The notes under the pieces: model-generated
The model's database searches: none
The model's input: only the letters and a program-made list of their open reading frames with translations
Told to the model about the DNA's origin: nothing
Source: an uncultured Polyangiaceae bacterium
GTDB lineage: Bacteria; Desulfobacterota; Binatia; UTPRO1
Length of the DNA: 64,000 nucleotides
NCBI GenBank assembly: GCA_964631985.1
Contig: CAZWAX010000002.1
Location: 2,129 to 66,128 of the forward strand
Direction: 5' to 3'
Shown here: positions 5,473 through 64,000 of the stretch, one piece after another
How the letters are laid out: each line of letters starts with the position of its first letter
How positions within the stretch are numbered: position 1 is the stretch's first letter
Program-made: the position numbers and the translations under genes

Positions 5473-7019
5473 GCGACTCGCCGCGCCCGCCCACGAACAA
5501 GTGGCTGGTGACTCTCGCGGTCATGCTCGCGACCGTCCTCGAGGTGCTCGATGTAACGATCGCGAACGTCGCGCTGCCGCACATGCAAGCGAGTTTCTCG
5601 GCCTCGATCGACGAAGTCACGTTGGTGCTGACGTCGTATCTCGTTGCGAGCGGCATCGTGATTCCGCTCACCGGCTGGCTCGCCGACCGTGTGGGCCATA
5701 AGCGTCTCTTCATCGGTAGTACAGTGCTCTTCACGGCAAGCTCGGTGCTCTGCGGGCTCGCCTGGAACCTCGAGAGCATCGTGCTCTTTCGCGTCGCGCA
5801 GGGGATTGGCGGCGCCGCCCTCATGCCGCTTTCGCAAGCAACGCTGCTCGAGGTCTTTCCCGAGGCCCAACACGGTCTCGCGACGGCCGTCTGGGGCATC
5901 GGTATCATGGCCGCGCCAATCTTGGGGCCGACGCTCGGCGGCTGGCTCACGGACAACTACCACTGGCGATGGGTCTTCCTCGTCAATCTCCCGCTCGGAC
6001 TCGTCGCGATCGCACTCCAACTGGCATTTGTCCCCGACGACTCCACCAAAGAACGACGGGTCACGCGCGTGGACTACGTCGGCTTGCTTCTCGTCACGCT
6101 GAGCATCGGATGCATGCAGATCGTGCTCGATCGCGGCGAACGATCCGATTGGTTTGCCGCTCCGTGGGTGTGGATCTTTACCAGCGTCTCGCTGCTTTCC
6201 CTCGTACTGGTGGTGCCATGGGAACTCAGGCACGAGGCACCCGTCGTGGATTTGCGCCTATTCCGGAAGGCGAGTTTCGCCTCCGGAACGCTCTTAACGG
6301 CGCTCCTCTTTGCCTGCCTCTACTCGAACCTCATCATGTTCGGTCTCTACCTCCAGACCGTGATGCAGTACCCCGCTTGGAACGCGGGCCTCACCATGGC
6401 CCCGCGTGGGATGGCCACCATGGTGGGGATGTTTGTCATTGGGCATCTGTACGCCCGCCTCGATCCCCGCTTGGTTCTTGCAGCCGGCCTTGGCCTTGTC
6501 GCTCTCAGCAGCTTTCAAATGGCGAACTTCCACGCAGGCTATGGCCAGCACGAGTTGATGATTCCGCTCCTCGTAAGCGGGCTGGGAATTGGGTGGACCT
6601 TCGTGCCGTTGTCGGCGAGCACGCTCAACGGTGTTCCGGCCGCGTCACTTGCGAACGCCTCCGGTCTCTTCAATCTCATGCGCAATACTGGCGCGAGCGT
6701 CGGCATCGCGATCTCCGGTACGCTTCTCGTCCGCTGGGGCCAGGCCCACCAGTCCCGCCTCGTTGAGCAAGTGAACCCGGTGAACCCCGCTGCCGACGCC
6801 GCTCTCCAGGGGGCGCAAGCGCTGGCCCGTCATGGCGGGGCGGATCCATTCACCGCAGCGAACCAGGCACTGGGCATGCTGTACGGGCTCATCCAACGCG
6901 AAGCGACCATCCTCGCGTTCGAGGACGTGTTTCGCTTTGCGGGCATCGTGGCACTTGCCATCCTTCCGTTGCTCTTGCTGCTGGGCAAAGGGCGGCCGGA
7001 CCCGTCGGCAATGCACTGA
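5469..7019 (+). CDS. MFS transporter, DHA2 (EmrB/QacA) family, 14-TMS drug efflux
   Basis: 516 aa with multiple hydrophobic helices. Motifs LDVTIANVALPHM and GxLaDrxGrkr. ATGA overlap with the MFP gene. Confidence 0.9.
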   Translation: MSDSPRPPTNKWLVTLAVMLATVLEVLDVTIANVALPHMQASFSASIDEVTLVLTSYLVASGIVIPLTGWLADRVGHKRLFIGSTVLFTASSVLCGLAWNLESIVLFRVAQGIGGAALMPLSQATLLEVFPEAQHGLATAVWGIGIMAAPILGPTLGGWLTDNYHWRWVFLVNLPLGLVAIALQLAFVPDDSTKERRVTRVDYVGLLLVTLSIGCMQIVLDRGERSDWFAAPWVWIFTSVSLLSLVLVVPWELRHEAPVVDLRLFRKASFASGTLLTALLFACLYSNLIMFGLYLQTVMQYPAWNAGLTMAPRGMATMVGMFVIGHLYARLDPRLVLAAGLGLVALSSFQMANFHAGYGQHELMIPLLVSGLGIGWTFVPLSASTLNGVPAASLANASGLFNLMRNTGASVGIAISGTLLVRWGQAHQSRLVEQVNPVNPAADAALQGAQALARHGGADPFTAANQALGMLYGLIQREATILAFEDVFRFAGIVALAILPLLLLLGKGRPDPSAMH

Positions 7020-7121
7020 GAGCCCGAGTCGTGCCGCGTTGAAATGCAGGGCCTTCCGTCGCCAAGACAGCAAACAGCGCCGGCATGCGAGCGATGGCCT
7101 CGTCGTCTGGCAGGGCACCTC

Positions 7122-7766
7122 TCAGCCCGCCGTCATGCGGCCGACCGTCGAGCGAACGAGGGTGCGGATGAAGCGCTCGATGTCCGCCGGCACCCGTTTG
7201 GTGATCTTCATCTGCACGACGATGTAGGCTGCTCCCATCATCAGGAGCGCCTCGCCCTCGGGTTCGAGGTCCGGGGCTACGGTACCCTCGCGCTGGCCGT
7301 GCTCGATGGCGGCGGCGATCGAACGCACCACACGCTCCTGAAAGGCGCGGTAGCGTGGCCAGCTCCCGTCGCCGAACGTGGTGCTCCAGTCGAGCCAGAC
7401 GCGGGCGTGATCGGGATGAGTGTCGACCGAAGCTGCGAACGTTCTCGAGAGCTGAAGGAGCGCGGCGGGGGCCGAACCGGCGCCCGCGAGCGACTGGTCG
7501 ACGAGCCCACCGTAGAACGTCTCGATCTCGGCGACCACCGCTTCCACGAGCGCAGTGCGGGTCGGGAAGTACACGAAGACGGCCGAGACCGAGACTCCGG
7601 CGGCTTCAGCGATCTCGGCGTGCCGGGCGGTGCGCAGGCCGCGCAGCGCGAACACTCGGAGCGCCGCGTCCAGCAACAGCGTACGGCGCGCACCCGGCGC
7701 GAGGCGGGCGGCCCGCTTGCGTACCGGTTGACGCCGCATCGGTCGCGCTTTGGTCCGCGTGGGCAT
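7122..7766 (-). CDS. TetR/AcrR family transcriptional regulator
   Basis: N-terminal HTH (LLDAALRVFALRGLRTARHAEIAEAAGVSVSAVFVYFPTRTALV). Divergent from the CYP153 gene. Confidence 0.85.
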   Translation of the reverse strand: MPTRTKARPMRRQPVRKRAARLAPGARRTLLLDAALRVFALRGLRTARHAEIAEAAGVSVSAVFVYFPTRTALVEAVVAEIETFYGGLVDQSLAGAGSAPAALLQLSRTFAASVDTHPDHARVWLDWSTTFGDGSWPRYRAFQERVVRSIAAAIEHGQREGTVAPDLEPEGEALLMMGAAYIVVQMKITKRVPADIERFIRTLVRSTVGRMTAG

Positions 7767-7793
7767 GGACCACGAGGGTATTCTCTATTGACA

Positions 7794-7816
7794 GGATACT
7801 CAATACCGAGTATTCC
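7794..7816. promoter_or_regulatory. putative TetR operator: inverted repeat atactc-N7-gagtat next to a TTGACA -35-like hexamer
   Basis: ggatactcaataccgagtattcc lies in the divergent intergenic region between the TetR gene (minus) and the CYP153 gene (plus). TTGACA at 7788-7793. Confidence 0.4.
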
Positions 7817-7886
7817 CTACTGATAGCTTACACAATAGCGTCCTTCGCGCCGCGAAGGAGCAGCATGGCTTCCAAGGAGCATCGAC

Positions 7887-9152
7887 ATGAATGACGGAAC
7901 TGCGGCGGTCAGTGGAACCGGCACGAGCGAGGCATATGCGATCCCGCTCGATGAGATCGATGTCAGCAATCCTGAGCGGTTCCGTGACAATACCATCTGG
8001 GCATACTTCGAGCGCCTGCGGCGCGAAGACCCCGTGCACTACTGCCGGGAGAGCGTGTTCGGGCCGTATTGGTCCGTGACCAAGTTCAAGGACATCATGC
8101 AGGTCGAAACCAATCCGCAGGTGTACTCGTCTGAATCGCGGTACGGCGGCATCACGATTCTGGAATCCAATGCCGCGGCGAGCCTGCCGATGTTCATCGC
8201 GATGGATCCGCCGAAGCACGACGAGCAGCGCAAGGCCGTCAGTCCGGTCGTAGCGCCGGAGAATCTCGCCAAGCTGGAAGGTCTTATCCGTGAACGCACC
8301 GGGCAGACGCTGGACAGCCTGCCGGTCGGCGAGACCTTCAATTGGGTCACTCGGGTCTCGGTCGATCTGACGACGAAGATGCTGGCGACGCTGTTTGACT
8401 TTCCCTGGGAGGATCGCGCCAAGCTGACGCGCTGGTCGGACGTGACGACGACGCTGCTCGGGGCGGGTCTCATTGATACCGAAGAGCAGCGCATGGCGGA
8501 GTTGAGGGACTGCGCAGATTACATGACGCGCCTGTGGAACGAGCGCGTCAATGCCACGCCCGGAACCGACCTGATCTCGATGCTCGCGCATGCCGACGCC
8601 ACCCGCAACATGACCCCGGAAGAGTTTCTCGGCAACATCCTGCTGCTGATCGTCGGCGGCAACGACACGACGCGGAACTCGATGACCGGCGGGATCCTGG
8701 CGCTCAACGAGCCTCCCGGCGAATACCGCAAGCTGTGTGCGCAGCCGGCCCTGGTGAGCTCGATGATCTCGGAGATCATCCGCTGGCAGACGCCGCTGGC
8801 GCACATGCGCCGCACCGCACTCCAGGACACCGAGCTCGGCGGCAAAACCATCCGCAAGGGCGACAAAGTCGTCATGTGGTACGTCTCCGGCAATCGCGAT
8901 GCCGACGCGATCGAGAATCCGGATTCGTTCCTCATCGATCGCCCCAAGGTGCGCCATCACCTGTCGTTCGGCTTCGGTATCCATCGCTGTGTCGGCAACC
9001 GCCTCGCCGAGCTGCAACTGCGCATCCTCTGGGAGGAGCTGTTGCGGCGCTGGCCGAAGCCGATGCAGCTCGAGGTCGTTGGGACGCCCAAGCGGGTCTT
9101 GTCGCCCTTTGTGCGGGGCTTCGAGGCCTTGCCGGTCCGCATCCAGGCCTGA
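7887..9152 (+). CDS. cytochrome P450, CYP153 family (alkane/alicyclic terminal hydroxylase)
   Basis: 421 aa with very high similarity over the full length to recalled CYP153A sequences (PVHYCRESVFGPYWSVTKFKDIM, LTRWSDVTT, HLSFGFGIHRCVGNRLAELQL). AAGGAG RBS. Confidence 0.9.
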   Translation: MNDGTAAVSGTGTSEAYAIPLDEIDVSNPERFRDNTIWAYFERLRREDPVHYCRESVFGPYWSVTKFKDIMQVETNPQVYSSESRYGGITILESNAAASLPMFIAMDPPKHDEQRKAVSPVVAPENLAKLEGLIRERTGQTLDSLPVGETFNWVTRVSVDLTTKMLATLFDFPWEDRAKLTRWSDVTTTLLGAGLIDTEEQRMAELRDCADYMTRLWNERVNATPGTDLISMLAHADATRNMTPEEFLGNILLLIVGGNDTTRNSMTGGILALNEPPGEYRKLCAQPALVSSMISEIIRWQTPLAHMRRTALQDTELGGKTIRKGDKVVMWYVSGNRDADAIENPDSFLIDRPKVRHHLSFGFGIHRCVGNRLAELQLRILWEELLRRWPKPMQLEVVGTPKRVLSPFVRGFEALPVRIQA

Positions 9153-11617: not shown

Positions 11618-12391
11618 GTGTCCGAGTACAAAGACATTCTCTACGACGTGAAAGACGCGGTCGCGACGATCGCCATCAATCGGCCGAAGTCCCTGAATGC
11701 CTTCACCGGCGAGACGATCCTCGAGCTGCAGGACGCCATCGAACGGTCGGGGGTAAGCCGGGAAGTGGGTGTGCTCGTCCTGACGGGTGTGGGCACCCGC
11801 GCCTTTTGTGCCGGCGGCGACGTGAAGTGGGAGTCCGGTGGCGGCCTCGACGGCCTCGACTTCAAGATCAATCGCATGCTCGTCGAGTGCCCGAAGCCCG
11901 TCATCGCCCGCGTCAACGGCTATGCGATCGGGGGCGGCAACCACATCGCCTACTTCTGCGATTTCACGATCGCGGCCGAGCATGCCGTGTTCGGCCAGAA
12001 CGGGCCGCGGGTGGGCTCGCCGGCGGCCGGGCACATCGTCTCGCACTCGGCCAGCATTCTCGGCCACAAGCGGGCCCGCGAGCTGTGGATGGTCTGCCGG
12101 CGCTACTCGGCGCGGCAGATGCTCGAGTGGGGCCTGGTGAACGCGGTGGTCCCGATCGAGCAGCTCGACGACGAGGTGGCGACGTGGTGTCGGGAGCTGC
12201 TCGCTCTCAGTCCGACCTGTCTCAAGATCCACAAGCTGACGTTTCGGAAGCACATGGAACACTACCTGGCGCACGACTTCCAAGAGATCGTCACGCAAGT
12301 CGCGCCCGGATACTTCGGGACCGGTGAGCAGCAGGAGGGCGCTGCCGCGTTTCTCGAGAAGCGGGCGCCGGATTTCAGCCGCTGGCGTTGA
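11618..12391 (+). CDS. enoyl-CoA hydratase/isomerase family protein (MenB/BadI-like crotonase)
   Basis: IAINRPKSLNAF, FCAGGDV, GYAIGGG. GTG start with AAGGAG RBS. Confidence 0.8.
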   Translation: MSEYKDILYDVKDAVATIAINRPKSLNAFTGETILELQDAIERSGVSREVGVLVLTGVGTRAFCAGGDVKWESGGGLDGLDFKINRMLVECPKPVIARVNGYAIGGGNHIAYFCDFTIAAEHAVFGQNGPRVGSPAAGHIVSHSASILGHKRARELWMVCRRYSARQMLEWGLVNAVVPIEQLDDEVATWCRELLALSPTCLKIHKLTFRKHMEHYLAHDFQEIVTQVAPGYFGTGEQQEGAAAFLEKRAPDFSRWR

Positions 12392-14924: not shown

Positions 14925-16079
14925 ATGAGCTTCATCGAAAGCGAAGAGCAGGTGGCGATACGCGAGACGGTACGTCGTATCGCGGGCGAGTTCGGCTACG
15001 AGTATTGGGCCGCGAAGACGCGGGCCGGGGAGCGGACGCACGAGCTGTGGCGGGCGCTCGGCCGCGGCGGCTTTCTCGGCATCAACGTCCCTGAAGTATA
15101 CGGGGGCGGCGGCGCCGGCATCCGCGAGCTCGCCATCGTCTGCGAGGAAGTGGCCGCCGTCGGCTGTCCGCTGCTGATGATCGTCGTGTCACCGGCGATC
15201 TGCGCCTCGATCCTCGCGGCGCACGCGAGCGACGAATTGAAACGCCGATGGCTGCCGGGTATCGCCTCCGGCGAGCGGAAGATGGCCTTCGCGATCACCG
15301 AGCCCGATGCCGGATCGAACTCCCACAACATCGCGACGACGGCCGAACGCGTCGGCGACGCCTACCGCCTGCGCGGATCGAAGACGTTCATCTCGGGGGT
15401 GGATGAGGCGGAGGCGATTCTGGTCGTCGCGCGGACCGGCTCGGACGAGCCGACGGGGCGGGGGAAGCTCTCGCTGTTCGTGGTCGAGACCGACCGGCCA
15501 GGGTTGGAGAAGAGTTTCATTCCCATCGAGATCTTCGCGCCCGAGAAGCAGTATCTCCTGCATTTCGACGACCTCGAGGTGCCGAACGCAAACCTCGTTG
15601 GCGAGGAGCACCACGGGCTCCGCACGGTATTCGACGGCCTCAACCCTGAGCGCATCATGGGTGCGGCCGTCTCGTTGGGCATCGCCCGCTACGCCCTCGA
15701 GAAGGCCGCGCGCTACGCCAACGAGCGCGTGGTGTGGCGGGTGCCGATCGGCTCACACCAGGGTCTCGCCCATCCGATGGCCGAGGCCAAGATCGAGGTG
15801 GAGCTCGCGCGCCTGATGATGAGCAAGGCCGCCTGGCTCTACGACCAGGGGTTACCGGCGGGCGAGGAGGCCAACATGGCCAAGTACGCCGCGGCCGAGG
15901 CTGGGCTCCACGCGCTCGACTGCGCCATCCAGACCCACGGGGGCAACGGGATGGCATCGGAGTACGGGCTCGCGACGATGTGGGGGATGACCCGCCTGCT
16001 GCGCACGGCGCCGATCAGCCGCGAGATGATCCTGAACTTCATCGGCCAGCACGCCCTCGGCCTGCCAAGGTCGTACTGA
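14925..16079 (+). CDS. acyl-CoA dehydrogenase
   Basis: ACAD N-terminal, middle and C-terminal hallmarks (AFAITEPDAGSNS; GGNGM). Confidence 0.9.
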   Translation: MSFIESEEQVAIRETVRRIAGEFGYEYWAAKTRAGERTHELWRALGRGGFLGINVPEVYGGGGAGIRELAIVCEEVAAVGCPLLMIVVSPAICASILAAHASDELKRRWLPGIASGERKMAFAITEPDAGSNSHNIATTAERVGDAYRLRGSKTFISGVDEAEAILVVARTGSDEPTGRGKLSLFVVETDRPGLEKSFIPIEIFAPEKQYLLHFDDLEVPNANLVGEEHHGLRTVFDGLNPERIMGAAVSLGIARYALEKAARYANERVVWRVPIGSHQGLAHPMAEAKIEVELARLMMSKAAWLYDQGLPAGEEANMAKYAAAEAGLHALDCAIQTHGGNGMASEYGLATMWGMTRLLRTAPISREMILNFIGQHALGLPRSY

Positions 16080-57252: not shown

Positions 57253-58407
57253 ATGAAGGTATCACTCTTCTACCTTCCGTCGATCGGCAGCCGTGCCGAG
57301 ATCGAGCGTGGCATGGCCGGCCTTCGCGGGGACCTCTACCAGCGGATGCTGCACGAGCTCGTCGAGCAGGCCAAGATGGCGGACCAGCTCGGCTACGATT
57401 CTATTAGCTTCACGGAGCATCATTTTCACGTCGAAGGCTTTGAGTTGTCGAACAATCCGGTGATGCTCGACCTCTTCGTCGGCATGCAGACCAAGCACAT
57501 CCGCGTGGGGCAGCTCGGTATCGTCCTTCCCGCGGACAATCCGCTTCGCGTCGCGGAGGACATCGCGATGCTCGACCACATGACTGGCGGGCGCGCGAAC
57601 GCCGGGTTCGCCCGGGGGTACCAGCGCCGTTGGGTCGACGTCATGGCGCAGCAGCTCCACGGCATCCACGGAGCCCAGCCGCACCAGCACGACGCGATCG
57701 ATGAAGCCAACCGCGGCGCGTTCGAGGAGTCCTTTCGCATCATCAAGAAGGCGTGGACCGAGGACATGCTGTCCTACCAGGGTCGCTACTGGCGCATTCC
57801 GCCGGGCGAGACGCCGTGGAACGTCGAGTCGAGTCTCCGTTACGGCGCAGGAGTAGAGGACGGCATGGTGCGCGCCGTCGGCGTAGTGCCAAAGCCGCTT
57901 CAGAAGCCGCACCCTCCCATCTTTCAGCCGTTCGCATCGTCGGAGCGCAGTATCCGGTGGTGTGCGGAGGAGGGGGTGACGGCGATCCTGCCTCCGCTTC
58001 ATCCCCGACTCGAGGAGCGCCTGGTGCGCCTCTACGCGGAGGTATCGGGGAAGCCCCCGGGAGACGGCATCGGGGTGCTCCGCGACCTCATCGTGGCACC
58101 AACCGACGAGGAAGCGCTCGCGCTGTGGGCCGACAGCGGAGTCTTCTGCGGTGGGGAGTGGTTCGAGCCGTTCGGATTCTCCCGAGGTTTGGCCGATCCC
58201 GACACCGGGGAGCTCCCCGACATCCTGGGCCAGAGCCTCGCCCTCGTTGGATCGATTGACACCGTAACGAAGCAGCTCGAGGCGCTACGGACGCGCCTTC
58301 CGGTCCGCTGGTTGTTCGCCTGGACTTACAACGGGCTCGTGCCGCACGATCGAATCATGCACTCGCTATCCCGTTTCGCGACGCGCGTGTTGCCGAGAGT
58401 CTCATAG
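57253..58407 (+). CDS. LLM-class flavin-dependent oxidoreductase (luciferase-like monooxygenase)
   Basis: [11 protein letters not shown]-terminus, FTEHHF, LLM TIM-barrel pattern. Confidence 0.85.
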   Translation: MKVSLFYLPSIGSRAEIERGMAGLRGDLYQRMLHELVEQAKMADQLGYDSISFTEHHFHVEGFELSNNPVMLDLFVGMQTKHIRVGQLGIVLPADNPLRVAEDIAMLDHMTGGRANAGFARGYQRRWVDVMAQQLHGIHGAQPHQHDAIDEANRGAFEESFRIIKKAWTEDMLSYQGRYWRIPPGETPWNVESSLRYGAGVEDGMVRAVGVVPKPLQKPHPPIFQPFASSERSIRWCAEEGVTAILPPLHPRLEERLVRLYAEVSGKPPGDGIGVLRDLIVAPTDEEALALWADSGVFCGGEWFEPFGFSRGLADPDTGELPDILGQSLALVGSIDTVTKQLEALRTRLPVRWLFAWTYNGLVPHDRIMHSLSRFATRVLPRVS

Positions 58408-58502
58408 CGTCGTCGCTGCGGAGCGCACGGCGCTCAGCTTGGACGAGCGCGGGATCGGATATCCGCGGTTGCGTCGGCGACCAGATCCGAACGTCGCTTC
58501 GG

Positions 58503-58850
58503 TTACGTCGTAGCCCGCTGCGGCTGGAATTTCAGCACACCCGCTTCGGCATCTAGCTGCGGCAGCACCGTGACGATCGGCTCACGGGTTGCACGGGCCA
58601 CGGCCTCGGCGATCGAGCCGGCCCGCGCCAATTCGGCGAGATTCATGCGCGTCGGAAAGATGATCGTGCGCCGGCCCGCATCGGCCGCGGCAAGTGCCGC
58701 GTCGGGAGCGACCCATGCGGAATCGACGGACTCCGTACCATCGTGGAGGGCAAGCTGATCAGCAGGCGCGATGGCAAGGAAGAAGTGCGTGTCGTAGCGC
58801 TTCGGCATCACCTCACGGGTGATCCAATGGGCGACGGGGAAGAGTTCATC
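58503..58850 (-). pseudogene. possible NUDIX-hydrolase-like C-terminal remnant
   Basis: C-terminal tail YDTHFFLA...DGTES..AWV.P.AAL resembles the region downstream of a Nudix box. The upstream part of the ORF is low-complexity and no Nudix box is present. Confidence 0.25.
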
Positions 58851-60242
58851 GAGCGTAACCGGAGAGGGCAGGGAATGGAGTCCCCCCTTTCGCGGACGTT
58901 GAGCACTCGCGGGGTGGGATCTAGGCGAGTCGTCAGCGGACAAAGGCACGACTTTCACTGTTCGTCTGCTGCCTCGCAGGTTTTCCCAGCAGCCCGACGA
59001 TGTGAAGTGGCGGTGCCGGAGAGGCAACGGCGCGCCCGATGGCCGGGCGCAAGGGTGTTCAGGCCCGACGACGCTGTGCCTCCGCTTTGTCGCCCAGCAG
59101 GCACAGCATGATCTGGTCTCGCCGTCGTCGCCGTTCCGCCATCGGTAACGCCTCGCACACCGCGCAGAGCACGAGCGCGTCGGGATTCGCGACGGCATTC
59201 GTTGAAGGCGCGCGACCGACCATCAGCAGTCGATCGCAGAGAACACAGCGCGCGGCGGGCATGGCTTCCCTTTCATCCCTTCGGCGCGCGTCGTCAATTC
59301 CGGAGTGTTACAGAGGGGGTGTAGGCACGCCGGGATGGCGCTTCCCTAACGCAAAGCGCCAAATGGGAGCACGTCGTATTATGCTAGCGTCCACTGCATG
59401 CGAGCCCCGAACGTGACCGGATCGTTCGGGAAGCGGCGACGGCCTCGGACGGTGCGCGGCGGTCGTATCTCGCCGCGACTGCGGCGGCAGACAGGCTTGG
59501 TCTCTCGCCGCGACGTGGACGACTGCTTTGAGCGGACACGCCGCGCGGTCCATCGTTCGGCCATAGGCGCGACCCAGCCGGATGTTCATGAGAACTGCGG
59601 CGCCGCGGATCACTCACCATACGCGAGTTCGTCCATCACCGGGGCGACCACGGGCAACGCTTGCGCTTCTGACGCCCGCGACCCTTCCAAAAGAGTGAGC
59701 CTCGCCCGATTTCGACAGTGCCAATCTTTTCGCCCTCGTGAAAGACCTCGAGCATTAGCGACGTCCCGGTCTTCGTGAGTTCGTGAACATGGAGCGTCGC
59801 TTAAGCGGTATGGGTTTGGCGTCGCGTGACCTTCGCTTCCTCTTAGTCGGCATGACGGGAATCCGTATTCGGAATCGGCTCGACCTTAGTAGCCTACCGA
59901 CCGCGAGCGAGACATGATCTATGCGCGAGGCGTCCGCCGCTGTCCCTTTGGACTGCGTGGGCGCCGTACCGAGGGTACAGCCCGCAGACAACGCAGGCTT
60001 CGCTCATCAATTCGCCCCGGCGTGGTTGGTCTGCCTTGGCAGAGTTCGACCGTGCTTGGCCTATACGCGGCTGCTCAGGGGACGCCATCGGAGGAACTGC
60101 CCGACGGGACGAGGACATGGTCCATTCTGTAGCAGTGAACCTTGCCGTGACCAACCGGCGCGCAGACGTGTGCAGTCTGGGTTCTTGATCAGTTCGTAGT
60201 GCAGCTCGCGGACTCTTGAGGCTTTCATCGAAGCCGGATTCC

Positions 60243-60305
60243 AGCGGTCCCCTACTCTGAATCCTTCGTCTTGCTTACGCATCATAAAGGACGTTATGAT
60301 ACTCT
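60243..60305. repeat. ~60-bp imperfect direct repeat copy B (att-like)
   Basis: agcggtcccctactctgaatccttcgtcttgcttacgcatcataaaggacgttatgatactct. It lies immediately upstream of the small ORF and the tyrosine integrase. Confidence 0.7.
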
Positions 60306-60339
60306 GAGAACATCGGGAAACCTAGAAGAGGGGTCGGAA

Positions 60340-60615
60340 ATGGACGGCGATGAGGACGGTCAGATCGAGGGGCCAAAAATGTCGCCGGCGACGTCGGCCG
60401 CGGCCGAACTCAGCGCGCGGATCGACGAGGTCGTGCGATCGTTCGAAGCCCGCGTTCCGGATCCGCTGCCAGCGGACACGCTTCAAGCTCTGCGGGCCGA
60501 GGTCCTCCAGCTCGCGCGCGCCCATGCCGCCCGAACGGTCCTCGAGACCGTCACGGCCCGATATGCGGCTCGACACCCGCCGCGGCCGCGGCGCCCCTGG
60601 AGCCGCCGGCCGTGA
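60340..60615 (+). CDS. small hypothetical protein upstream of the integrase (excisionase-like position)
   Basis: 91 aa. Its stop overlaps the integrase GTG start (GTGA). Confidence 0.35.
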   Translation: MDGDEDGQIEGPKMSPATSAAAELSARIDEVVRSFEARVPDPLPADTLQALRAEVLQLARAHAARTVLETVTARYAARHPPRPRRPWSRRP

Positions 60616-61643
60616 GGCCCGAGGATCCGATCATGCCTGAACCCTGGGAACTCGCCGTCGTCGAGAAGCCGAAGCGGCTGAGCGCTGAGGATTGCGCGAT
60701 GGTGCCGGCGCTGATTCGCAGCGCCGGCGACCGTGCGGCATGGCGCTTTCTCGAGTTCTTCACCGCGAACATTCGAAACAAGAACACCCGGATCGCCTAT
60801 GCGCGTGCCGTACGGCTCTTTTGCGACTGGCTCGACGAGCGCGGCATCCACGATCTTGCTCACGTGAACCCCGTCTTCGTCGCCGCGTACGTGGAGCATC
60901 TCGGCGAGCGCTTCTCGAGGCCCACAGTGAAGCAGCACCTCGCGGCCATCCGAATGCTGATGGACTATCTCGTGACCGGCGGAGTTCTGCCCTTCAACCC
61001 CGCCGCGGCCGTTCGCGGGCCCAAGCACGTTGTGAAGCGGGGAAAAACTCCGGTGCTTTCTGCTGCCGAAGCCAGGCAGCTCCTCGACTCGATCTCGCTC
61101 GCCGGCGACGACGGATCCGTTGACATTGTGGGTCTTCGCGATCGCGCACTCATCGGCCTCATGGTCTTCAGCTTCGCTCGGGTCGGCGCTGCCATTTCGA
61201 TGCGCGTTGAAGACTACTACGCGGAAGGCAAACGGTGGTGGTTCCGATTGCACGAGAAAGGCGGCAAGCGACACGAGGTTCCCGCGCATCACAACGCCGA
61301 GGCATACATGGACGCTTATCTCGAGGCGTCGGGTCACAAGGCGGAGAAGCGTTCCCCCCTCTTCCGCACCACCCGCGGCCGCAGCGGTGAGCTCACCCCG
61401 AAGCCGATGCACCGGGTAGATGCTCTTCGGATGATCAAGCGCCGCGCTAAGGCGGCCGGGTTACCCGCTGCAGTCTGCTGTCACACGTTCCGTGCGACCG
61501 GCATCACCGCCTACCTCGAGAACGGCGGCACGATCGAGAACGCGCAAGCGATCGCCGCGCACGAGAGTCCCCGCACGACTAAGCTCTACGACCGCACCGA
61601 CGACGCGATCACGCTCGACGAGGTTGAGCGAATCGCTATTTAG
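60612..61643 (+). CDS. tyrosine-type site-specific recombinase/integrase
   Basis: C-terminal catalytic region with R...HxxR...Y (CHTFRATGITAYL, ESPRTTKLYD). Confidence 0.85.
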   Translation: MRPEDPIMPEPWELAVVEKPKRLSAEDCAMVPALIRSAGDRAAWRFLEFFTANIRNKNTRIAYARAVRLFCDWLDERGIHDLAHVNPVFVAAYVEHLGERFSRPTVKQHLAAIRMLMDYLVTGGVLPFNPAAAVRGPKHVVKRGKTPVLSAAEARQLLDSISLAGDDGSVDIVGLRDRALIGLMVFSFARVGAAISMRVEDYYAEGKRWWFRLHEKGGKRHEVPAHHNAEAYMDAYLEASGHKAEKRSPLFRTTRGRSGELTPKPMHRVDALRMIKRRAKAAGLPAAVCCHTFRATGITAYLENGGTIENAQAIAAHESPRTTKLYDRTDDAITLDEVERIAI

Positions 61644-61683
61644 CAAGCACCTTTCGCTTGACTTTCGCCTGTGCACTGCCAGG

Positions 61684-61875
61684 ATGTTTGTGCGTTTTCA
61701 GGGCCAACGCACTACACGCTGGCGAGAGGGGGTGAGTCTTTTGGGGAAGAATGAACAAACCGGAAAGGCCGCAGGGTCGGCGGCGTCGAAGGTTCTCCGC
61801 AACCCGCAGTCGTCGAAGGCGACGAAGTCGGCAGCGGCCTCCGCACTCACGCAACGACCTAACAAGAAGCGCTAG
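61684..61875 (+). CDS. small basic hypothetical protein
   Basis: 63 aa, Lys/Ala/Ser-rich. Higher GC3 than the overlapping alternative frame. No recognisable domain. Confidence 0.25.
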   Translation: MFVRFQGQRTTRWREGVSLLGKNEQTGKAAGSAASKVLRNPQSSKATKSAAASALTQRPNKKR

Positions 61876-61883
61876 AACGTCCG

Positions 61884-61917
61884 GTGCCTGGTCGTCCATG
61901 GTTGGTCGACCAGGCAC
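61884..61917. terminator. 11-bp perfect inverted repeat (gtgcctggtcg / cgaccaggcac) with a 12-nt loop; possible terminator or operator
   Basis: Stem-loop lying between the small ORF stop (61875) and the TcmP start. No U-tract follows. Confidence 0.3.
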
Positions 61918-61952
61918 ACCGACACCGCGTAGGTGCTCCCCGAAAGCAGCTC

Positions 61953-63077
61953 ATGAGTTCATTCTTCGATGAAACCACCGCTCAGTCGGCCATCAAGGCC
62001 AAAATCGTCAGCGACTACTTTTGGGCGTGGGCGAAGGTCATCATCCCCACCGCTAAGAAACACGGCGACCGCATCGGCTACATCGACCTCTTCGCTGGCC
62101 CGGGCCGCTACGCAGACGGGACGAAGTCAACGCCACTCCTGGTTCTGGAGAAAGCTATTGGCGACGCTGACATGCGGCGCATGCTTGTCACGCTCTTCAA
62201 CGACGCCGACCCCGACAACATCGCATCCCTTGAAAAGGAAATCGCTGCCCTGCCAGGCATCGAGAAACTCAAACATAAACCGATTGTTCGGAACCAAATC
62301 GTCGACACAGAGGTAGCCAAGTTCTTCAGTGGCAGGAACGTCATCCCGAGTTTCTTCTTCATCGACCCGTGGGGCTACAAGGGACTTTCGCTGGACCTCA
62401 TCAATTCTGTCCTCAAGGACTGGGGATGTGACTGCGTCTTCTTCTTCAACTTCAACCGCATCAACATGGGGGTAACGAACGAAGCGGTCGCGCCTCACCT
62501 CAATGCGCTCTTCGGAGAGCAGCGTGCCGAAGCCCTTAGAGTGCTTCTCCCTACGCTGGCGCCGCCACAGCGCGAACTCGCCATCGTCGAGAACCTCGTC
62601 GAGGCGCTCAAGGAGAAGGGAGCGGGCTACGTGTTGCCGTTCTGCTTCAAGAACGAGCAGGGCACCCGGACGAGCCACCATCTTGTCTTCGTCACAAAAC
62701 ACCCCAAGGGCTACCAGATCATGAAAGACATCATGGCGCGCGAGAGCTCGTCTGCAGAGCAGGGCGTGCCCTCCTTCGACTACAATCCCGCACCCACAGA
62801 CCCGCAGATGAAGCTGCTCTTTGAGCTCGCTCGCCCTCTCGACGACCTCGCGGGTATGCTGCTCGAGCGCTTCGCCGGCCAGACTTTGACGGCAGGAGAA
62901 GTCTTCGAGAGACACAATGTCGGCACTCGGTTTATAGGACGCAACTACAAGGATGTGCTTCGCAAGATGGAAGCCGAAGGCCTAATCAAGACGAACCCAC
63001 CGGCTCCGCAAAGGCGGAAGCTAAAGGGCGAAGTGACCTTTGCGGACCGGGTCGTCGTGAAGTTTCCGAAAAGGTGA
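61953..63077 (+). CDS. three-Cys-motif partner protein TcmP-like
   Basis: N-terminus MSSFFDETTAQSAIKAKIVSDYFWAWAKVI resembles the recalled TcmP family. Lower GC and A/T-ending codons. 3-nt gap to the downstream Gp37/Gp68 gene. Confidence 0.7.
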   Translation: MSSFFDETTAQSAIKAKIVSDYFWAWAKVIIPTAKKHGDRIGYIDLFAGPGRYADGTKSTPLLVLEKAIGDADMRRMLVTLFNDADPDNIASLEKEIAALPGIEKLKHKPIVRNQIVDTEVAKFFSGRNVIPSFFFIDPWGYKGLSLDLINSVLKDWGCDCVFFFNFNRINMGVTNEAVAPHLNALFGEQRAEALRVLLPTLAPPQRELAIVENLVEALKEKGAGYVLPFCFKNEQGTRTSHHLVFVTKHPKGYQIMKDIMARESSSAEQGVPSFDYNPAPTDPQMKLLFELARPLDDLAGMLLERFAGQTLTAGEVFERHNVGTRFIGRNYKDVLRKMEAEGLIKTNPPAPQRRKLKGEVTFADRVVVKFPKR

Positions 63078-63080
63078 TGA

Positions 63081-63833
63081 ATGGGCGCTAACTCCGCCAT
63101 CGAGTGGACTGAGGCGACTTGGAACCCCGTTACCGGGTGCGACAAGATAAGCCCCGGCTGCAAGCACTGCTACGCGGAACGCATGGCTGAACGGCTGCAA
63201 GCCATGGGTCAGCGGAACTACCGGAACGGCTTTGAGCTAACACTGCAAGAGCATGCCCTCCGACTTCCGCTCTCCTGGAAGAAACCACAGACCATCTTCG
63301 TGAACTCGATGAGCGACCTCTTCCACGTCGACGTTCCCGCAAGTTTCATCGCACGTGTCTTTGACGTCATGTGTCGCGCCGCCTGGCATCACTTCCAGGT
63401 CTTGACGAAACGGGCCGAGCGACTCGAGGAGCTCGCGCCGTCGCTCCCCTGGCAGCCGAACATCTGGATGGGTGTCAGCGTCGAGCGCGCAGACTACACC
63501 TTTCGCATCGACCACCTCCGGCGAACGAATGCCGGCACGAAGTTTTTGTCTCTCGAACCGCTTCTCGGTCCTCTGGCCGACTTGAACCTCGCTGGAATCG
63601 ACTGGGTCATCGTGGGTGGCGAGTCAGGACCAGGGGCTCGACCAATGGCAGGGGATTGGGTGAGCGACATCCGCGACCAATGCCTCCGTGCCGGCGTGCC
63701 TTTCTTCTTCAAGCAATGGGGCGGTGTGAACAAGAAGAAGACTGGACGCCTCCTAGAGGGCCGCACCTGGGACGAAATGCCCCATCCGTCGCGTGCATCG
63801 GCACCTCTGGCCGCCTCCGACCTGCGCGGGTGA
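63081..63833 (+). CDS. phage Gp37/Gp68 family protein (DUF5131, three-Cys motif)
   Basis: N-terminal [14 protein letters not shown] and Cys triad [11 protein letters not shown], characteristic of the DUF5131 family. Confidence 0.8.
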
Positions 63834-64000
63834 GAATCGCCACCAATCATTGTCGCGCACAACCATCCGTCGGGAGACCTTACGCCATCGGATGCTGATC
63901 GCTCAGTTACGAAGCGTCTCGCCGAAGCTGGCTCTCTCCTAGGCATCCCGCTCCTCGACCACCTCATCGTGACCGGCGCGGGATTCTACTCCTTGCAGGA
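63834..64000 (+). pseudogene. RadC-family JAMM domain C-terminal fragment (N-terminus missing; runs off the window)
   Basis: [43 protein letters not shown] matches the RadC JAMM core HNHPSG...D. No start codon. It is in frame with, and directly after, the Gp37/Gp68 stop. Confidence 0.55.

Follow-up and report, generated by a model that had tools for sequence, protein, structure and literature searches.

Gene Pair at the Locus

The window analyzed here is a 64,000-nt stretch of DNA from an uncultured Polyangiaceae bacterium (GCA_964631985.1, contig CAZWAX010000002.1, positions 2,129–66,128 of the forward strand), with coordinates counted from its first letter. The region under study, positions 61,953–64,000, carries two adjacent genes encoding TcmP and a DUF5131 (Gp37/Gp68) protein. 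Together with a leader, these genes form a discrete, horizontally mobile cassette that was transferred as a unit (61644–63834, 2.2 kb). The encoded proteins are a predicted RlmJ-like methyltransferase and a predicted radical S-adenosylmethionine (SAM) type enzyme, and we tentatively read the cassette as defense cargo. The locus comprises the following features:

61953–63077, plus strand: TcmP, 374 aa (TIGR04474)
63081–63833, plus strand: DUF5131/Gp37-Gp68 protein, 250 aa (PF07505)
61644–61952, plus strand: cassette leader of ~300 bp, which travels with the gene pair
60612–61643, plus strand: tyrosine integrase of the island (PF00589 and PF02899; PHROG 1 integrase)
63834–64000, plus strand: RadC (JAB/JAMM) remnant, 5′-truncated (PF04002), extending 16 nt beyond the window end

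The two genes are co-directional, with 3 nt between the TcmP stop and the DUF5131 start. The TcmP open reading frame (ORF) opens at a GTG at 61884; its homologues and the database protein P0001 (374 aa) begin at the ATG at 61953. The GC content of the pair is 0.590, compared with 0.661 ± 0.018 for the backbone, and none of 286 equal-sized backbone windows was as low. GC at third codon positions was 0.74–0.75, compared with 0.80–0.90 in three flanking genes. An earlier account made from the letters of the window (hereafter the sequence-only reading) had described a low-GC TcmP/DUF5131 pair with a CX6CX2C cysteine triad, placed downstream of a tyrosine integrase and followed by an in-frame, start-less RadC fragment. 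Family searches, alignments, and base composition bore out each of these points.

Predicted Folds and Motifs of the Two Proteins

TcmP matched TIGR04474 at 207.7 bits (cutoff 53) over residues 11–264, corresponding to profile positions 2–262 of 263. Its C-terminus matched the GMT winged helix-turn-helix (wHTH) family PF22560 at 70 bits (residues 276–351). The structural model, with a predicted local distance difference test score of 96.3, consists of a class I SAM-dependent methyltransferase domain (residues ~1–265) followed by the winged helix; this methyltransferase fold had escaped the sequence-only reading. RlmJ was the best structural match by two methods and represents the nearest class I methyltransferase fold, and Trm1, CmoA, and TYW4 were also matched. 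Across 118 homologues with 38–90% identity, K15, G49, G51, D138, and G141 were invariant, and P139 and Y142 were conserved in at least 90% of sequences. The TcmP segment YIDLFAGPGRY aligned with RlmJ motif I (YLDTHAGAGRY), and FFFIDPWGY aligned with RlmJ motif IV (LILIDPPYE). More than 5,900 TcmP homologues were scored, and the longer ones showed no additional Pfam domains, hence no domain fusions.

The structural likeness had no counterpart in sequence profiles. A TcmP profile search of PDB sequences did not retrieve RlmJ, and PDB sequence searches with TcmP, DUF5131, or the TcmP profile gave no meaningful match. Direct alignment with E. coli RlmJ by hhalign gave a probability of 11.7% (E = 0.0026) over motif I alone. 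TcmP is thus RlmJ-like yet lies outside the RlmJ sequence family. Based on its fold and motifs, TcmP is predicted to be an RlmJ-like (m6A-type) amino-methyltransferase.

The DUF5131 protein matched PF07505 over its full length (profile positions 1–243 of 243) at 344.8 bits (cutoff 28.9). It carries the cysteine triad C20-x6-C27-x2-C30 and a GGES motif at residues 179–182. The triad was invariant in 45 close homologues and in eight phage and cellular homologues, and both triad and GGES were kept even in distant phage and archaeal-virus homologues. In the AlphaFold2 model, the beta/alpha core was confident and the cysteine loop poorly defined. In its fold, the protein resembled a partial TIM barrel, with spore photoproduct lyase (SPL) as the best structural match. 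It scored 80.3 bits against TIGR04471, "radical SAM mobile pair protein A" (cutoff 355), and is related to that family without being a member. DUF5131 is also an SFLD-curated subgroup of the radical SAM superfamily, next to SPL (PMC9477430). The metal or Fe–S center proposed in the sequence-only reading was too vague in this light. From sequence and model together, the protein is predicted to be an enzyme of the radical SAM superfamily type.

DUF5131 proteins are also encoded on their own in phages and archaeal viruses. These solitary proteins are 290–360 aa long and contain three insertions absent from the 250-aa TcmP-linked form, and sequence comparison places them in a distinct, longer subfamily. 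Their phage genes (L093, L094, L092, L006, L005, and L091) sit in early replication and recombination modules, next to genes for RecT, RusA, DnaQ, SSB, a sliding clamp, and a dNMP phosphatase.

Linkage of TcmP and DUF5131

The recurrence of the pair was surveyed by scanning one genome per species, which gave at least 557 confirmed matches. The 80 loci surveyed, from among the matches listed, span at least 10 phyla and include Acidobacteriota, Cyanobacteria, Chloroflexota, Nitrospira, Planctomycetota, Poribacteria, Deltaproteobacteria, Deinococcales, Firmicutes, and others. A DUF5131 gene lay within ~120 bp of TcmP in 79 of them, in line with the recurring two-gene module anticipated by the sequence-only reading. 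A near-full-length DUF5131 match was present in 78 loci; in these, the two genes were co-directional in 42, convergent in 31, in reversed order in four, and divergent in one. This retention of linkage through rearrangement suggested a functional need beyond mere co-transcription. Pairwise distances of TcmP and DUF5131 were also correlated (r = 0.69, Mantel p ~0.001). No third gene was conserved around the pair; the commonest other neighbor cluster occurred in 12 of the 80 loci, mostly syntenic cyanobacteria. With this obligatory linkage and co-evolution, TcmP and DUF5131 constitute one functional unit.

The dependence within this unit is asymmetric. TcmP is almost never found alone and DUF5131 often is; phage records contained DUF5131 in 181 cases and TcmP in five. 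The complete pair is rare in viral contigs, with 20 loci in 2.9 million. A different partner was found on the Halopiger xanaduensis plasmid pHALXA02 (L106 2314–6104), where a TcmP homologue (TIGR04474, 197.6 bits) occurs without DUF5131 and adjoins two canonical radical SAM proteins of the SplB-like Rv2578c/PA0069 type. TcmP therefore pairs with several lineages of SPL-related radical SAM enzymes and always with one of that kind, so that partner swapping stays within the SPL-related clade.

Cassette Ends and Cargo Slot

Comparison with two other loci delimits the cassette. Window positions 61651–63781, leader included, align over 2136 bp at 86.9% DNA identity with a copy (L095) in a wholly different context, namely a type I restriction-modification (R-M) system, where it lies between hsdS and hsdR. 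The closest relatives are also found on their own, flanked by housekeeping genes. The second locus is a sister island on metagenome contig Ga0268299_1000568 (L112), whose integrase is 84% identical. DNA homology to the sister island ends exactly at the integrase stop and resumes at window position 63835 inside radC. Its counterpart of window 61644–63834, positions 5984–9090, holds Thoeris genes followed by an intact 165-aa RadC. The slot content was assigned to Thoeris (ThsA/ThsB) by similarity: the TIR protein matched PDB 8wcf at 1e-42 and ThsB 6lhy at 1.6e-14, and ThsA matched PDB 6lhx at 1.7e-103.

At our locus, the RadC remnant begins directly after the DUF5131 stop (from 63834) and is in frame with it. 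The remnant covers PF04002 positions 67–120 of 121 (78.8 bits) and retains the HNHPSG motif; with no start codon and ~66 profile positions missing from its beginning, it is not a complete JAB domain. It forms the right-hand boundary of the cargo slot. The cassette would have been dropped into this variable slot directly 3′ of the integrase gene, with deletion of the 5′ part of radC.

The integrase belongs to the island and lies outside the cassette. A fixed trio of integrase, TcmP, and DUF5131 was considered and rejected. Eighty metagenome loci (L111–L190) with integrases 61–84% identical carried other cargo, with the pair in none of them, and among the pair loci only L088 has an adjacent integrase, which is unrelated. 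Cargo downstream of this integrase family is hypervariable: 32 loci gave ~114 protein clusters, almost none of them shared. It includes a DUF262 protein, an 842-aa helicase (solved homologue PDB 10uj), and a SNF2/RapA-like protein. The integrase-linked slot resembles a cargo or defense hotspot and could be mined for more candidates.

Two further observations concern this integrase family. Members with 61–84% identity are common in soil and sediment metagenomes. In L088, an 86-residue fragment (14926–15183) shares 78% identity with the C-terminal end of the window integrase and lies just after an operon of the cyclic oligonucleotide-based antiphage signaling system (CBASS); this fragment may have been left behind by island turnover at a shared site.

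Defense and Mobility Context of Other Copies

Copies of the pair were found embedded in, or next to, known defense systems. The pair lies inside type I R-M, between hsdS and hsdR, in two unrelated systems, namely L095 and a Chloroflexi genome, and another copy lies inside a ResIII/N6_N4_Mtase system. The L088 copy is on an integrase island with a type III CBASS neighbor and its own unrelated integrase upstream. On a Rhodococcus plasmid, the pair adjoins Wadjet JetA/B and a zeta toxin. One copy is near ParE/Phd and another near an IS1595 element, and two contexts examined contained no defense genes. In the Gordonia prophage Easley (L004 3992–6483), TcmP, annotated as "methyltransferase", is located between the integrase and the immunity repressor. 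It follows the repressor directly on the same strand, and the DUF5131 gene is convergent with a 4-bp overlap. The integrase–repressor interval is a classic place for prophage-encoded defense genes.

Published data offered similar contexts. In S. meliloti, TcmP neighbors Hna (PMC12445080), and a study of sponge symbionts reported enrichment of both COG4422 and R-M genes (PMC5649159). Among proteins encoded no more than two genes from the pair, 269 PADLOC families were matched, versus 41 for proteins at least six genes away in the same loci, a count that is crude because one R-M system can match many models. The pair thus occupies defense slots. The R-M embedding, the CBASS neighbor, and the Thoeris genes in the same island slot uphold the association with mobile and defense loci that the sequence-only reading had raised.

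Prior Listing of the Pair

Both genes are already represented in defense databases. The DUF5131 protein matched PADLOC models PDC-M41B at 404 bits and PDC-M30B at 386 bits. By raw bit score, TcmP matched PDC-M30A at 72–74 bits over its full length and PDC-M41A weakly at 18.5 bits. The adjacent genes therefore match both components of PDC-M30 and PDC-M41, which Payne et al. proposed as phage-defense candidates in their "guilt-by-embedding" screen (bioRxiv 10.1101/2024.01.29.577857). Most PADLOC phage-defense candidates remain unvalidated (PMC12988326), and P. aeruginosa surveys merely count PDC-M30 (PMC10855318). The sequence-only reading had proposed an undescribed system; the pair cannot be called that, because PADLOC lists both genes and TIGRFAMs had named the pairing, which underlies the TIGR04474 name. 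Its statement that no function is assigned agreed with the literature, where searches on DUF5131, PF07505, TIGR04474, TcmP, PDC-M30/M41, COG4422, and RlmJ with radical SAM returned no functional or biochemical study. The pair is an already listed, unvalidated defense candidate with no published function, and the locus is not a new discovery. New here are the RlmJ-like fold of TcmP, the match of DUF5131 to SPL, the survey of the pair, the cassette ends, and the Thoeris genes in the sister slot.

Leader and Island Surroundings

From 61651 onward, the leader shares ~81% identity with the sequence that precedes TcmP in the R-M-embedded copy L095. A 44-codon, S/A/K-rich ORF in the leader was rejected as a gene, with no Pfam match and a broken frame in L095. 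This break suggested that the conservation of the leader is probably noncoding, and the leader is probably a promoter and 5′ untranslated region. The leader had no Rfam match, and a promoter scan of 61500–64000 found no sigma-70-like or consensus sites. The leader also contains one repeat:

61884–61917, no strand: perfect 11-bp inverted repeat (GTGCCTGGTCG, 12-nt loop, CGACCAGGCAC), 35 nt upstream of the TcmP ATG

Its second arm is missing in L095, so the repeat is specific to the window locus. Upstream of the TcmP genes in the 80 loci, inverted repeats were not enriched, with a mean longest stem of 5.8 compared with 5.6 in shuffles. An operator for the wHTH was therefore rejected as a general feature.

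Left of the integrase, window positions 58408–60600, between a luciferase-like gene and the integrase, are gene-poor and contain short ORFs with no family match. A possibly truncated 151-aa ORF lies at 58503–58958 on the minus strand, and GC within the interval drops to 0.61. This interval is probably the left edge of the island. No tRNA was found within the window, and an Rfam scan of 58000–64000 gave a single weak match to the miRNA mir-932 at 59287–59347, which was taken as chance.

To the right, the island continues on a near-identical contig (L001; 99.8% identity over 12 kb), in which the RadC fragment ends at 12064. Beyond window position 64000, L001 12097–19479 encodes a DUF2726 protein with weak REase_MTES_1575 similarity, several proteins that matched no family, ParA, ParD/ParE, and an HTH protein. 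The proteins of this interval gave no convincing PADLOC model match. The att-like repeat suggested earlier found no support: a direct-repeat search over 13 kb (L001 6400–19684) returned short imperfect pairs only, with the far end of the island beyond the data.

Proposed Function and Mechanism

The two modeled folds, the conservation of the putative catalytic motifs, the linkage, the cassette transfer, and the presence in defense slots are observations. From these, we infer a defense phenotype, radical chemistry from an Fe–S cluster and SAM, and an order of reactions. Our preferred reading, held at slightly below even likelihood, is that the cassette is stand-alone antiphage or anti-mobile-element defense cargo of the PDC-M30/M41 type that performs SAM-dependent chemistry on nucleic acid. 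The substrate would probably be DNA.

Under this defense-cargo reading, DUF5131 would be the core enzyme, an SPL relative whose C20, C27, and C30 would bind a [4Fe–4S] cluster and which would generate a 5′-deoxyadenosyl radical from SAM. TcmP would serve as its obligate partner, docking on nucleic acid through the wHTH and flipping out a base. The exocyclic amine of this base would then be methylated at the RlmJ-like site formed by K15, DLFAGPG, and DPWGY. Two outcomes are conceivable. In the first, methylation by TcmP would mark self DNA, and DUF5131 would damage only unmarked invader DNA. In the second, methylation would complete a two-step base modification. The first option is attractive because the convergent arrangements and the HTH on TcmP fit an R-M-like scheme. 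The asymmetry of solitary genes accords better with a joint two-step modification, with TcmP dependent on DUF5131, than with the R-M-like scheme. The fully specified version, in which an SPL-like radical SAM enzyme damages or inactivates invader DNA and the RlmJ-like methyltransferase self-marks or targets, amounting to R-M with radical instead of hydrolytic restriction, is unlikely as a whole.

Several points weigh against the defense-cargo reading. The crudeness of the PADLOC family count reduces its force, and some copies stand alone between housekeeping genes with no defense neighbor. The closest structural relatives of TcmP act on RNA, not DNA, and its motif IV is DPWGY instead of DPPY. 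The TcmP alignment showed no hypervariable segment like that expected in a sequence-specific DNA methylase. DUF5131 has CX6CX2C spacing in place of the canonical radical SAM motif CX3CX2C. Identity across phyla is unusually high for the two proteins (~60% and 55–77%). The pattern of solitary genes is the reverse of that expected for a toxic nuclease guarded by a methylase, which speaks against simple R-M logic; this argument is tempered by the solitary phage proteins being of the different, longer subfamily. Together, the frequent solitary DUF5131, the missing variable specificity segment of TcmP, and the high conservation of both proteins weaken the self-marking option in particular. Finally, the searched literature contained no experiment on the pair and no published antiphage validation.

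A first alternative is self-protective DNA hypermodification, an anti-restriction or epigenetic mark in which both enzymes build a modified base on the carrier's own DNA and shield it from restriction. Lone DUF5131 genes are common in phage early, replication, and recombination modules, like anti-restriction modification genes, and the dependence of TcmP on DUF5131, not the reverse, fits a TcmP that finishes the DUF5131 product. The RadC, ParA, and ParDE genes of the island are typical of establishment regions of mobile elements. A radical SAM reaction on a base that was methylated first also has a precedent in Trm5 and TYW1 of wybutosine synthesis. Embedding in host R-M operons and a slot otherwise occupied by Thoeris, however, fit defense cargo better. 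The rarity of the pair in viral contigs is a further difficulty, and convergent order, seen in 31 of 78 loci, would be uncommon for a simple pathway of two steps. On balance, we consider hypermodification unlikely.

The RNA relatives of TcmP point to a second alternative, RNA-directed abortive infection or retaliation with PrrC-like logic. On infection, TcmP and DUF5131 would act on rRNA or tRNA, either modifying or damaging it. TcmP best matches RlmJ (23S rRNA m6A2030), Trm1, CmoA, and TYW4, and the absence of a variable target-recognition segment together with very high conservation suggests a universal target. The pair also sits between hsdS and hsdR, as PrrC does; a PrrC comparison appears in the text of the Payne et al. 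preprint (10.1101/2024.01.29.577857). Set against this, the nearest radical SAM relatives of DUF5131, SPL and SplB-like proteins, are DNA enzymes (PMC9477430), and the wHTH is more typical of DNA binding. The pair has no sensor or regulator domain, and phage DUF5131 genes lie in DNA-metabolism modules. This alternative appears quite unlikely.

Strict two-gene linkage, lone insertion between housekeeping genes, and a wide, patchy distribution would also suit a selfish addiction module with no real antiphage role. Such a module would resemble R-M or toxin–antitoxin systems in post-segregational killing, with DUF5131 harmful unless TcmP methylates its target. The frequent convergent arrangement, the HTH on the methylase-like partner, and neighbors that are often toxin–antitoxin genes (ParE/Phd, ParDE, zeta) agree with this. 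Solitary DUF5131 is nevertheless common and evidently tolerated, albeit in a different subfamily, and addiction is not exclusive with defense. We regard pure addiction as very unlikely.

Least probable by our estimate, and highly improbable, is DNA repair, in which DUF5131, aided by TcmP, would use SPL-like radical chemistry to undo a DNA lesion and the defense-island setting would be incidental: SPL is the top structural match and the neighboring SFLD subgroup, hosts are rich in light- or desiccation-exposed groups (cyanobacteria, Deinococcales, Rubrobacteraceae), and in phages the neighbors include genes for RecT, RusA, SSB, and a clamp, but a methyltransferase has no obvious role in lesion reversal, R-M embedding and replacement by Thoeris in the slot are unexpected for repair genes, and the host list may merely mirror what has been sequenced.

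If the defense-cargo reading is correct, the pair would bring a second class of radical SAM enzymes into bacterial immunity, besides the viperins. Its methyltransferase partner has no characterized DNA-modifying relative and belongs to a very large family that spans many phyla and has no published function. As a test object the locus is clean: the cassette spans 2.2 kb, has defined ends and a leader of its own, and can be compared with an island that bears Thoeris in the equivalent slot.

Comparison with Known Systems

RlmJ, the E. coli 23S rRNA m6A2030 methyltransferase whose family includes Legionella LPL1258 (PDB 2oo3), is the top structural match to TcmP. The two proteins share the motif I pattern Y-[IL]-D-x-x-A-G-x-G-R-Y, an N-terminal lysine (K15 in TcmP, K18 in RlmJ), and a D-P-x-x-Y type motif after strand 4. 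TcmP differs in its extra C-terminal wHTH and in being mobile and paired with a radical-SAM-like gene instead of serving a housekeeping role. DUF5131 differs from SPL and the SplB-like proteins (Rv2578c and PA0069 families; TIGR04470/TIGR04471) in having CX6CX2C in place of CX3CX2C. It is also much shorter than SPL, and a lesion-repair context is not evident.

Like R-M systems and the defense genes embedded in them, such as PrrC, the pair is small, mobile, and tightly linked, with one member of methyltransferase fold. It further resembles R-M in its frequent convergent order, the HTH on the methylase-like protein, and copies between hsdS and hsdR. Unlike R-M, it has no variable specificity region, and its nonmethylase partner is often solitary. 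A type II R-M system combines a methyltransferase with a recognizable endonuclease domain; neither TcmP nor DUF5131 matched a nuclease family in Pfam, NCBIfam, or PADLOC. Conservation across phyla is also far higher than usual for restriction enzymes.

The TIGR04474 and PF07505 entries define families without function. Both models were matched far above their cutoffs, the adjacency behind the naming holds in 79 of 80 loci, and the window DUF5131 protein is the minimal 250-aa form. PDC-M30 and PDC-M41 have the same two-gene make-up and were nominated on the same kind of evidence, namely copies embedded in known defense systems. The window TcmP represents a distant subfamily of the PADLOC A-models, with 72–74 bits compared with 208 bits to TIGR04474.

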